From Patescibacteria group bacterium (GTDB lineage: Bacteria > Patescibacteriota > UBA1384 > 2-12-FULL-50-11), in contig JBBUAP010000001.1 of NCBI GenBank assembly GCA_038058635.1, positions 94,157 to 158,156 on the forward strand: 64,000 bases of DNA. The letters are read 5' to 3'. The notes under the pieces are model-generated. The model did no database searches, had not been told where the DNA came from, and worked only from the letters and a program-made list of their open reading frames with translations. Shown here piece after piece: positions 4,175 to 13,039 of the stretch (the first letter of the stretch is position 1; the number at the start of each line of letters is the position of its first letter). The position numbers and the translations under genes were made by a program.

Positions 4175-4741
4175 TCACTCATCTCGAGCGGACAACTCGA
4201 CTGCACGAGCTATGGTTTCCTCGAGAGTCTCGTAGATAGGAAATTCCCGGTTGAGTGCCCGTTCAAAGTTGTGATGGATAACGTCGAGGCCGGGGAAATC
4301 CTTCTCGGCTCCAACCACAACCCTAAGGTCTGGCTCATGCATCATCCGACCTCGCCACTCACCCAACTCACCATACGAGTCGCGCGCGTAGGGATGACCG
4401 TCCGTTCTCGGGGAATTCGGACTCTCGCATGGGAGCCAGAAGATCACGCATCCTCCGAAGACGGATTTGGCAGCGATTTCTAGGCACTGACGCTCCCAAG
4501 TTGTCTGGCGACTGAACCTTGTCTCGTCGAGCCCGTCACATCTGTGTTGGTACAGCGGATGTTCTGGCTTCCAACGGCAAGGGACAACAACCTGGAAGTC
4601 TGCGTCTTGAACCTCCTCCAGGAGCTCTAGACATGCAGCGTGTTGCCAATCGCCCCCACCCTTAATGGGTCCAGCTAGGAAAAACGTTGGGTAGCTGGCG
4701 CTACCATCTTCTATGAACTGTTTCGGTAGTATAAGTTGCAA
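4175..4741 (-). CDS. Nucleoside 2-deoxyribosyltransferase-like (Rossmann/SLOG-type) protein
   Basis: FFLAGPIKGGGDW near the N-terminus and DSYGELGEW near the C-terminus resemble the NDT-family FLAGP and D-x-G-T-x-FELG motifs. Local GC looks slightly above neighbours. Confidence 0.35.
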   Translation of the reverse strand: MQLILPKQFIEDGSASYPTFFLAGPIKGGGDWQHAACLELLEEVQDADFQVVVPCRWKPEHPLYQHRCDGLDETRFSRQTTWERQCLEIAAKSVFGGCVIFWLPCESPNSPRTDGHPYARDSYGELGEWRGRMMHEPDLRVVVGAEKDFPGLDVIHHNFERALNREFPIYETLEETIARAVELSARDE

Positions 4742-4841
4742 ATCCGACCTCCTAACACCTGAGTGTTTCTGGCCGGATCATATCAATAAATCTTCCTCGG
4801 ATCAAGCGTGTCAAATAGAGTTTCGTAGACGAAACTTTCAG

Positions 4842-4928
4842 CGGAAGGGCAGGGATTCGAACCCTGGGACCCCTTACGAGGTCAACACATTAGCAGTGTG
4901 CTCCATTCGGCCACTCTGGCACCCTTCC
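4842..4928 (-). tRNA. tRNA-Ser (anticodon GCT)
   Basis: Reverse complement folds as a class-II tRNA. Acceptor is GGAAGGG/CCCTTCC, anticodon stem GCACA/TGTGT with loop CTGCTAA, a long variable arm, T-arm GGGTTCGAATCCC. No encoded CCA. Confidence 0.85.
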
Positions 4929-5050: not shown

Positions 5051-5908
5051 ATGAAAAAGGTATTAGTATCCGCTCTCGTCGTTCTGTCGTCGACGCTGGC
5101 CTTCGGCCAGGAGATCGACGACTTGGCTGGCAGAGCTTTCGATCGACCGGCAGTCAAGTGGTTGGCGGAAGTGGAAATCGGCCAGGACAAGAACGGGTGG
5201 AATCCATACGTCTCTGATGAAGAGGTCGTTGCCCGATTCGGCTGGCTAGCCGGGTTGCACGGCGTCGGACTCGGGCCGAACACTCAGGAGCTTCTCCGCG
5301 AGGTCGGAGACGCAGAGCTACGCACTGACCCCGACATTGCCAAGTGGATGAAACCGTCCGCCCGGCAAGCTCAAGGACGGATCAGCGATGTCGGCTGGAG
5401 ATTCCAGCTTGTAGCTGGCGGTGACAGTTCGTCTGGCAACAACGAGTTTGGGATCGGTAGCGTTCGGGTTCAGCTCGAATCTGGCAAAGCCGTTGCGAAG
5501 CTCGGAGTCAAGGTCACGAACCTTACCTCCATGGAAGCGAAGATTTTTTGGTTCGAGGTTTCTCATGCCTCGACCAACTTATCTTCGGCGGAGAACTACT
5601 CATTCTCCAACTTGTTTCGGAAATCTGGCTTGCCAAATTTCCGTTACGACTCCGACCAGGGGAGCGCTGGCAATCGACGAGGTTACATCGTTGTGGCCAA
5701 GCTTTGGTTGAGAATCCACAAGGAGTTCAGCCAGATCACTAACTGGATGAACTCCTTCTCCGACCCTGAGCCCGCTCGCGCCTATGCGCGGCGGGTTCTT
5801 TTTTATTCTTTCCGAGCGGAAGGGGTGGGATTTGAACCCACGATACCTTGCGGTATACCGGTTTTCGAAACCGGCGCACTAGGCCACTATGCGACCCTTC
5901 CAGTGTGA
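5051..5908 (+). CDS. Secreted hypothetical protein (signal peptide MKKVLVSALVVLSSTLAFGQ). The annotated 3' end reads through the antisense tRNA-Ser, so the true stop is uncertain.
   Basis: Long ORF with a classical Sec signal peptide. The last ~30 codons are the reverse-complement translation of tRNA-Ser(CGA). Confidence 0.45.
   Translation: MKKVLVSALVVLSSTLAFGQEIDDLAGRAFDRPAVKWLAEVEIGQDKNGWNPYVSDEEVVARFGWLAGLHGVGLGPNTQELLREVGDAELRTDPDIAKWMKPSARQAQGRISDVGWRFQLVAGGDSSSGNNEFGIGSVRVQLESGKAVAKLGVKVTNLTSMEAKIFWFEVSHASTNLSSAENYSFSNLFRKSGLPNFRYDSDQGSAGNRRGYIVVAKLWLRIHKEFSQITNWMNSFSDPEPARAYARRVLFYSFRAEGVGFEPTIPCGIPVFETGALGHYATLPV
5817..5901 (-). tRNA. tRNA-Ser (anticodon CGA)
   Basis: Reverse complement is GGAAGGGTCGCATAGTGGCC...CCGGTTTCGAAAACCGG...GGGTTCAAATCCCACCCCTTCCG. 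Anticodon loop TTCGAAA, long variable arm. Confidence 0.85.
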
Positions 5909-6040
5909 CGAAGGAGCGATGGTGAGGTCGGACAAGGTTCTGGCTTCGCCAGGTTCTTATGCGACCCCTCTATTGTGACTAAGGAGCGATGGTGAGGTCG
6001 GACGAACTTGCGATAGCAAGTGACATGCGACCCTTCCTGA
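5886..6040. repeat. Tandem, roughly 68-bp repeats that each begin with the first ~14 nt of tRNA-Ser(CGA)
   Basis: tatgcgacccttccagtgtgacgaaggagcgatggtgaggtcggac (from 5888) recurs at 5957 with about 6 mismatches in 47 bp. A third partial copy, atgcgacccttcc, lies at 6025. Units end in different small hairpins (ctggcttcgccag and cttgcgatagcaag). Confidence 0.6.
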
Positions 6041-6104
6041 TGATGACGCCCTCAATTTTATCTCATTATAAAGAAAAAGTCAGTGCTTCCGCTACAATAT
6101 ACTC

Positions 6105-12426: not shown

Positions 12427-12757
12427 TCGCCTCCGACACCAAGTGTCGGGGGCGAATCCACTAGTGTGCGCCTGGCTGGAATGCCTTACGCTTCACTCCG
12501 GTATTCCATCCTCATCGCCAACTGGGCGACTCGGTCGCAATCTAATTAGCGTCCCCGGGAGAGTTCGAGCCTCCGACCTCAATCTCCGCTAAGGTCTTAC
12601 GAAAAACGGGAGTTCAACAGATCTGAGCGCTAACGATTGCCCACGGCTAGCTTTATGCGTGTATAATCACAGCGTATCCCCTGAATCGTCCTCTGCATGC
12701 ATGACGCCAGGGCAAGGAACCTAAGGGGCCGCTCTAGAGCGGCTCCTTCTTCTTTTG

Positions 12758-12830
12758 TGCGCCCGGCTGGATTCGAACCAGCGGCCTCTTGCTCCGCAAG
12801 CAAGCGATCTATCCACTGAGCTACGGGCGC
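12758..12830 (-). tRNA. tRNA-Arg (anticodon GCG as read; one D-stem mismatch)
   Basis: Reverse complement is GCGCCCGTAGCTCAGTGGATAGATCGCTTGCTTGCGGAGCAAGAGGCCGCTGGTTCGAATCCAGCCGGGCGC. The anticodon stem CTTGC/GCAAG and loop TTGCGGA fold cleanly. Confidence 0.7.
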
Positions 12831-12880
12831 GAACGAAGTGAGCGATCGTAGCGAAGGGGAGTGAAGGCCGGAGGCCGAAC

Positions 12881-12931
12881 ATCCACTGAGCTACTGGCGC
12901 ATTTTTTAAGGTATCCACTGAGCTACGGGCG
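12881..12931. repeat. Two extra copies of the 5'-terminal ~20 nt of tRNA-Arg between the tRNA-Arg and tRNA-Ser genes
   Basis: atccactgagctactggcgc (12881-12900) and atccactgagctacgggcgc (12912-12931) copy the genuine tRNA 5' end at 12811-12830. Confidence 0.55.
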
Positions 12932-12952
12932 CAAACTAGTATCGGGTATCAG

Positions 12953-13039
12953 CGGAGGCGGTAGGATTCGAACCCACGAGGAGCTTTCACCCCTAATAGT
13001 TTTCAAGACTATCTCCTTCAACCACTCGGACACGCCTCC
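12953..13039 (-). tRNA. tRNA-Ser (anticodon TGA)
   Basis: Reverse complement is GGAGGCGTGTCCGAGTGGTTGAAGGAGATAGTCTTGAAAACTAT...GGGTTCGAATCCTACCGCCTCCG, with a long variable arm. Confidence 0.85.

Follow-up and report, generated by a model that had tools for sequence, protein, structure and literature searches.

How does a tRNA gene come to be preceded by several copies of its own beginning? The question is raised by tRNA-Ser(CGA) in a 64-kb stretch of DNA (contig JBBUAP010000001.1 of assembly GCA_038058635.1, positions 94,157 to 158,156), which is referred to throughout, at its full length, as the window. It comes from the metagenome-assembled genome of an uncultured groundwater bacterium of the candidate phyla radiation (CPR) with a small genome, for which the closest database records carry the labels Saccharibacteria or Berkelbacteria. 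Related loci read from other genomes and contigs for comparison are given L-numbers (L002, L019, and so on). The answer that we favor, tentatively and at somewhat less than an even chance, is that small mobile cassettes left the repeated units, either as non-coding footprints or as non-autonomous copies; such cassettes would enter the D-loop of a tRNA gene and supply it with a replacement 5′ end.

The functional tRNA-Ser(CGA) lies on the minus strand at 5816-5901 (ARAGORN; Rfam tRNA, 57 bits), and its first 13-14 nucleotides (nt) are present three times on that strand, at 5888-5901, 5958-5971, and 6025-6037, with spacings of 70 and 66 nt. In tRNA orientation, each unit consists of a tRNA 5′ fragment, a hairpin peculiar to that unit, and a near-identical 30-nt module that leads into the next fragment. 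The most upstream fragment (copy 3, 6025-6037) is followed by insert A (53 nt, 5972-6024), made up of the hairpin region GTCACTTGCTATCGCAAGTTC (6004-6024), a conserved 23-mer (5981-6003), and the tail AGTCACAAT (5972-5980). Copy 2, AGAGGGGTCGCATA (5958-5971), differs from the real tRNA at 2 of its 14 positions and opens into insert B (56 nt, 5902-5957), with the hairpin region AGAACCTGGCGAAGCCAGAACCTT (5934-5957), the same 23-mer (5911-5933), and the tail CGTCACACT (5902-5910); copy 1 (5888-5901) is the start of the real gene, its first 14 nt, as placed by ARAGORN and Rfam. The inserts were delimited by analysis of repeats and of the 23-mer, GTCCGACCTCACCATCGCTCCTT, which is present exactly two times in the window and did not appear in any of 100 shuffles; its repetition is beyond chance.

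The initial annotation had described a repeated segment here, with about six mismatches at a spacing of about 68 nt, together with a third partial copy and a small hairpin specific to each unit. The repeat is real, as a 46-nt block in two copies (5888-5933 and 5958-6003) of 91% identity, with the figures corrected to 4 mismatches and 70 nt; the third copy is the 13-nt tRNA start at 6025-6037, and the hairpin stems indeed differ, ACTTGC/GCAAGT in one unit and CTGGC/GCCAG in the other. Since the modules of units A and B are identical at 29 of 30 positions while their hairpin parts of 21-24 nt cannot be aligned at all, the two units are not a local duplication that has drifted. On this comparison the array is best described as two related yet distinct pieces of DNA, inserted one after another.

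Relatives show what the locus looks like when empty. In L002, L003, L005, and L025, whose PilB proteins are 84-94% identical to that of the window, promoter and leader run directly into a single tRNA-Ser(CGA); in alignment with these loci the window agrees as far as tRNA position 13, carries 136 extra nt, and then resumes agreement. As aligned, the Ser units are a 136-nt insertion (two units) after tRNA position 13, and the earlier observation that the 5′ end rather than the 3′ end is duplicated holds, the copies being insertions relative to close relatives. With the match to relatives reaching tRNA position 13, it is the most upstream copy that represents the native 5′ end, now displaced; this copy agrees with the tRNA at 13 of 13 positions and lies directly 3′ of the native leader and of a sigma-70-like promoter (CTGACT-17-TAAAAT, 6055-6083, minus strand) that is conserved in relatives. 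This is the only promoter-like site upstream of tRNA-Ser(CGA), and of the three copies just the most upstream is preceded by one.

The same build recurs at a second tRNA gene. Downstream of tRNA-Ser(TGA) (12952-13039, minus strand; ARAGORN), and likewise on the minus strand, come a 21-nt copy of the tRNA-Arg 5′ end (copy 3, 12912-12932), an A/T-rich spacer of 11 nt, CCTTAAAAAAT (12901-12911), a 20-nt copy with 1 mismatch (copy 2, 12881-12900), a 50-nt insert, GTTCGGCCTCCGGCC...TCCCCTTCGCTACGATCGCTCACTTCGTTC (12831-12880), and finally the real, functional tRNA-Arg(GCG) (12757-12830; ARAGORN, Rfam). The first of these copies, identical at 21 of 21 positions and about 19 nt after tRNA-Ser(TGA), occupies the place where relatives hold the intact tRNA-Arg, and is the displaced native 5′ end; the corresponding empty site in L025 consists of tRNA-Ser(TGA), an 18-nt spacer, and tRNA-Arg. 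The 11-nt spacer is possibly the remnant of a second insertion.

Other genomes repeat the pattern at these two tRNAs. In L019 (YidC 72% identical) tRNA-Arg(GCG) follows a 20-nt copy of its own start, perfect in sequence, and an insert of 55 nt, and this insert aligns to the Arg insert of the window (TCCCCTTCGCT...CTTCGTTC) with a score of 28 (p = 0.002); by this alignment the two Arg inserts are homologous and follow the same 20-nt duplication. In L026 (PilB 84%), the sequence ahead of tRNA-Ser(CGA) consists of a 26-nt 5′ copy without mismatch and a 75-nt insert that is unrelated. All duplication boundaries fall within the D-arm, at tRNA positions 13/14, 20/21, and 26.

Whether the Ser and Arg units share a module is less clear-cut. 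The pair ACCATCGCTC-CTTCGT and ACGATCGCTCACTTCGT aligns with a score of 22 (p ~0.003-0.004 by shuffling), a score that ~0.3% of window segments reach, and MAFFT places the two modules in different register; the likeness is modest, ambiguous in register, and suggestive only. The initial annotation had proposed that an element type common to tRNA 5′ ends links the two loci. Its Arg copies are there (12912-12932 and 12881-12900, with the insert from 12831), and a shared element type is a fair reading of the common Arg build and of the homologous insert in L019, the resemblance of the Ser module to the Arg module adding only modestly to it.

The tRNA genes concerned carry traces on their 3′ side as well. 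A copy of the tRNA-Arg 3′ end from T-loop to terminus, ATTCCAGCCAGGCGCAC (12466-12482, minus strand; 16/18 identical), lies 278 nt downstream of the gene, with a chance expectation that we estimate at ~3e-3, and is a classical 3′-side integration scar on tRNA-Arg; it encloses ~280 nt that include a terminator-like hairpin (12723-12748). In L026, tRNA-Ser has an 18-nt 3′ copy (379-396), 135 nt after the gene, and an inverted T-arm-like copy (285-305). Orientation varies too, tRNA-Ser(CGA) running in the same direction as pilB in L026 (1-440) and L028 (1056-1144) and divergently in the window and four other relatives; judged by these gene orders, the tRNA-Ser(CGA)/pilB locus has been inverted at least once. 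Given the 3′-side scars at the window tRNA-Arg and the L026 tRNA-Ser, together with the Ser(CGA) inversion, these tRNA genes are recombination hot spots in the clade.

A few further loci were inspected in the same connection. A suspected tRNA-like pseudogene at ~12505-12590 was rejected for want of any match to the tRNA model, and chance suffices to explain the 10 nt that this region has in common with the Ser module. In L015 (2694-2766), the 73-nt spacer between tRNA-Ser(TGA) and tRNA-Arg opens with a hairpin, followed by a stretch ~50% identical to the tRNA-Arg start and then by ...AATCGTCGTTT; this spacer may, on weak evidence, be an old, decayed unit. In L021 (3022-3390; YidC 84% identical), yidC is followed, in place of tRNA-Ser(TGA), by an Xre-type helix-turn-helix (HTH) open reading frame (ORF) that is cut by the contig end.

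What might lay down such a pattern? Under the cassette reading, a cassette would enter a tRNA gene in its D-loop region, bringing its own copy of the first 13-26 nt of that tRNA. The resulting order would be native promoter, displaced native 5′ fragment, inserted DNA, and then the cassette-borne 5′ end joined to the rest of the tRNA, so that the gene would stay intact by virtue of the supplied end. Repeated insertion at one site would give a tandem array, with two units at Ser(CGA); at Arg(GCG) it would have left one full unit and an extra 5′ copy across the 11-nt spacer. A site-specific enzyme would presumably be responsible, and the ORF-less units would have been derived from gene-bearing cassettes. 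Because no promoter-like site was found inside the Ser or the Arg units, they are expected to be transcribed from the native promoters, as a leader at the Ser locus and as an inter-tRNA spacer at the Arg locus; they would probably be co-transcribed with the tRNA and removed on RNase P cleavage at the real 5′ end.

Gene-bearing candidates for such cassettes sit at the same tRNA sites. In L016 and L017, an ORF of 239 amino acids (aa; L016 3193-3912) fills the gap between tRNA-Ser(TGA) and tRNA-Arg, and its stop codon coincides with tRNA-Arg positions 8-10. It belongs to an uncharacterized family of ~230-aa proteins (the L016 family) with 243 database matches at E ≤ 1e-5; source names are given for few of these, and every one is a CPR lineage. 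An N-terminal HTH of transposase type is all that Pfam matches, and the C-terminal alpha/beta domain is modeled confidently (predicted local distance difference test score, pLDDT, 91-93) with no match in PDB above a template modeling (TM) score of 0.42; on these two grounds an assignment of the ORF to the LAGLIDADG homing endonucleases was rejected. The Xre-type ORF of L021 is not clearly related to this family (hhalign probability 17%).

In every locus read, a family member directly adjoins a tRNA gene that shares its strand, often ending within the first 10-24 nt of the tRNA, and all four relatives found in IMG/VR viral contigs lie within tRNA clusters, on the strand of the tRNAs (4/4). The ORF in L029 (671-1354) is bounded by tRNA-Glu and by a 23-nt relic of a tRNA-Glu 3′ end (p < 0.0005), that in L030 (1483-2220) ends at tRNA-Leu positions 13-15, and another member occupies L031 ~1490-2190. 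Several members read through a tRNA-Arg gene (E ~1e-7 to 1e-11), and many have C-terminal peptides in common, such as xPVA (27 of 120) or RP/RS, of the kind that tRNA-Arg-like 5′ ends encode. From this arrangement, the genes look like one-gene mobile cassettes lodged in tRNA genes, with the overlapping tRNA end supplied by the cassette, and the family is a candidate new tRNA-targeting selfish gene. A bolder extension, to which we give only a small chance, would place the units, as non-autonomous members, in a class of very small CPR elements not described before, which carry a replacement tRNA end for D-loop or T-loop insertion and are mobilized by the L016 family, acting as a new recombinase or endonuclease specific for tRNA genes.

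A number of results weigh against deriving the units from mobile cassettes. Within the 64-kb window, annotation of the called genes and a Pfam search of ORFs of at least 200 aa for recombinases and transposases brought up no integrase, transposase, or endonuclease gene, and the 5′-targeting integrase suggested in the initial annotation is unproven. Further copies of the units, such as miniature repeat elements of the MITE or REP type scatter in large numbers through a genome, were absent both from the window and from ~250 kb of related loci, so mobility is something that we infer rather than see. Module strings of 16-23 nt gave nothing in viral contigs, or chance matches in coding sequence; a 19-mer had six matches in JGI metagenome contigs, all by chance, in coding sequence only, with no genuine one among them; and phage and plasmid records contained no match to a 144-nt query that covered both Ser units (5902-6045). 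An intact parent element bearing these modules was not found, the inserts themselves being merely 50-75 nt long. Nor was any similarity in sequence detected between the window modules and the ends of the gene cassettes, and the link between the two is therefore positional and architectural only; even the relic upstream of the L016 gene is weak, a 10-mer equaled by ~3% of segments in the L016 locus. Finally, the patchy distribution of the units could reflect an old, vertically inherited feature lost through recombination between direct repeats. Two related searches may be recorded beside these. Tandem Arg 5′ copies 40-70 nt apart were not found in viral contigs, and the idea that the modules are remnants of the 3′ coding end of a cassette ORF was rejected, on the grounds that tblastn matches fall on the tRNA-Arg gene only and that hand translation gives no reading frame common to the window and L019.

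Other origins for the units have to be set against the cassette reading. Repair of a broken tRNA gene is one: a homing endonuclease would cut the D-arm, and repair from an ectopic or foreign tRNA allele would import upstream sequence of the donor, joined to the native 5′ fragment, with recutting giving tandem copies. Free-standing homing endonucleases are known in tRNA clusters (T4 SegB, PMC2330249), and segmental amplification driven by SegB is reported as well (PMC13096335). Every boundary lies in the D-arm, which is pseudo-palindromic, and the inversion of the Ser(CGA) segment relative to pilB in L026 and L028 indicates breakage or rearrangement at that place. L019 has a PD-(D/E)XK endonuclease gene (4366-4719, minus strand) between tRNA-Ser(TGA) and the tRNA-Arg 5′ fragment with its unit, immediately upstream of the latter; its product matches PF11645 at E = 2e-15 and, at 3e-7, the "putative endonuclease" of PDB 2OST, which we take to be I-Ssp6803I. 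This gene, however, lies outside the duplicated segment and is missing from the corresponding position in the window, L015, and L025; relatives of the enzyme were not found in viral contigs. The units in the window have no endonuclease gene nearby, a restored tRNA would still be cleavable, and two independent repairs are unlikely to yield inserts as similar in length as 53 and 56 nt, with one 30-nt module in common, which leaves break repair an unlikely account. Another origin would be replication slippage, that is, a random local tandem duplication of leader and tRNA start followed by drift, with neither element nor function involved. Direct repeats with a regular 66-70-nt period and a plain single tRNA in relatives are what it would predict, but nothing in the native locus could have served as source of the inserted DNA, since in relatives the promoter leads directly into the tRNA; the hairpins of A and B are wholly different while their modules differ at 1 position in 30; and the same build is found again at tRNA-Arg and in two further genomes, one of which has a homologue of the Arg insert. 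The initial annotation had held that plain tRNAs in relatives, combined with a module unique to this locus, would point to random duplication. Relatives do carry the plain single-copy gene; the module is not unique to the Ser locus, and for that reason random local duplication does not follow from them. Already disfavored, slippage is left with a low probability, and the further suggestion of decayed tandem tRNA/promoter duplications is not supported, as the inserts have neither significant tRNA similarity nor a promoter-like site. An assembly artifact, in which strain variants of the tRNA region had collapsed into a false tandem array, would suit a metagenome-assembled genome and a middle copy with a variant acceptor sequence such as another strain might have. 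It is hardly credible when the tRNA-flanking sequences seen in relatives include nothing of which the inserts could be variants, equivalents exist in assemblies made independently from different samples (JGI for L019, ENA for L026), and the neighboring genes are identical on seven contigs.

The remaining alternative is that the units are kept for a function, the tRNA fragment and insert hairpin being selected as a leader RNA, for example, in pre-tRNA folding, processing, or stability, or as a small RNA; the leader-derived RNAs suggested in the initial annotation belong here and are unproven. Its appeal lies in structure: each fragment folds with its insert into a single long, imperfect hairpin to which a single-stranded tail of 10-22 nt is attached (z scores of −3.6 for insert A, −2.8 for insert B with copy 2, −2.9 for the Arg insert, −2.6 for a further long unit, and −2.1 for L026), and in all long units the tRNA fragment forms the 5′ arm of this extended hairpin. 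Units A and B keep the hairpin continuous despite wholly different inner sequence, the fragments have stayed at 95-100% identity to the tRNA even though homologous inserts have diverged, and transcription of the units is to be expected, since they contain no internal promoter-like site. Against a selected function stands the absence of the units from the closest relatives, so that they must be dispensable, and Rfam 15 has no family inside them, either in scans of both loci to E 10 or in a scan of the window at the gathering threshold. The inverted fragment copy looked for within each insert is significant for L019 alone (p = 0.005) and not for the Ser units; combined, the tests give a Fisher p of 0.011, two of the four resting on the homologous Arg inserts. 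In equilibrium folding of whole precursors (5816-6048 and 12757-12951), moreover, the fragment that pairs with the 3′ acceptor strand is the most upstream one and not the real 5′ end (P = 0.83 for Ser and 0.98 for Arg), a prediction that suggests interference: such decoy fragments may hinder tRNA folding and compete in maturation rather than help. A selected leader is, on balance, quite improbable.

Several narrower ideas about the inserts were discarded along the way. A role of the inverted fragment copy as the key to the architecture was demoted to that of a weak feature, significant in L019 only, and equilibrium folding did not bear out the notion that the hairpins guard against decoy pairing. 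The "ACCA" after the 3′ arm of the Ser hairpins, which might recall the end of a tRNA-like minihelix, was dismissed as coincidence, the Arg units being without it; small plus-strand ORFs starting from AAGGAG...ATG/GTG were dismissed as well, with no conservation between units. Local alignments of the inserts to four tRNAs on both strands gave no significant similarity (p ≥ 0.07), and the units contain no tRNA-model match, so that decayed tRNA pieces and antisense tRNA copies were rejected as their origin. A group I intron with a homing endonuclease in the tRNA is ruled out by the intact tRNA downstream of the units and by the lack of a match to an intron model.

How the units compare with known systems depends on which feature is considered. 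As in the attachment-site (att) duplications left by the integrases of prophages, integrative and conjugative elements, and genomic islands, a partial tRNA copy flanks the insert (here 13-21 nt), sequence brought by the element restores the gene, the site is empty in relatives, and repeated use of the site yields tandem arrays. Unlike them, the window has the 5′ end duplicated, in blocks that run from tRNA position 1 to the D-arm, and its inserts are 50-75 nt long and geneless, with no integrase in 64 kb. Williams, in 2002, is said to have placed the known integration sites in the anticodon loop, the T-loop, or the 3′ end. The cis-mobilizable elements (CIMEs) of the Streptococcus thermophilus ICESt family are att-bounded and recombinase-less, form tandems at the target, and are thought to derive from autonomous elements; they are kilobases long, occupy the 3′ end of a protein gene, and have been shown to be mobilized in trans. 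The window units resemble CIMEs as recombinase-less DNA in tandem between att-type repeats, but are far smaller, and their mobilization is presumed.

Partial tRNA genes left by integrations are common (PMC9897764). In Caldiarchaeum subterraneum, a 1.8-kb recombinase element separates the intact tRNA-Thr gene from a 5′ fragment upstream of it, an arrangement that is polymorphic in a natural population and linked to intron gain (PMC3293823). That case is archaeal, 1.8 kb long, and recombinase-coding, whereas the window units are bacterial, 50-75 nt long, and non-coding. Elements specific to dusA replace the displaced 5′ part of the gene that they enter. These islands share 5′-end entry with the window units and differ in being large, in carrying an integrase, and in targeting a protein gene; their integrases direct them into the 5′ end of dusA (PMC4482086). 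Homing endonucleases, such as the free-standing SegB of the T4 tRNA cluster (PMC2330249) and the PD-(D/E)XK enzymes of I-Ssp6803I type, are small selfish genes that lie between tRNA genes and cut tRNA-gene DNA, and a PD-(D/E)XK homologue adjoins the L019 unit; they do not normally leave duplicated tRNA ends, and no endonuclease gene is present at the window loci. Geneless 5′ duplications of this kind in bacteria, 50-75 nt long and bounded by the D-arm, are described in none of the precedents cited here.

Mobile DNA has its classic landing sites at tRNA genes, almost always on the 3′ side, and the units present the mirror image of this at two tRNAs, across at least three genomes. An enzyme, should one be behind the insertions, would recognize a new class of site in a universally conserved gene and might be compact; the tRNA-abutting L016 family provides a concrete candidate for it. 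In practical terms, the 5′ fragments confuse tRNA annotation, and they mark recombination hot spots that should be useful for strain typing in metagenomes. As decoy acceptor strands within the pre-tRNA, they may also affect maturation.

Some observations concern the surroundings of the Ser locus. A further tRNA gene, tRNA-Ser(GCT), is called by ARAGORN at 4841-4928 (minus strand), though it is missing from the gathering-threshold Rfam scan of the window. A plus-strand ORF of 285 aa (5051-5908), called as a gene, has a signal-peptide-like start and no Pfam match; it runs antisense across the entire tRNA-Ser(CGA), with its stop codon within unit B. A terminator-like hairpin on the plus strand (5776-5791), followed by a T-rich tract, lies inside this ORF and makes its real 3′ end doubtful. 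In the wider region, dnaA and dnaN are nearby, and genes for a type IV pilus and for a type IV secretion-like system lie within the window.

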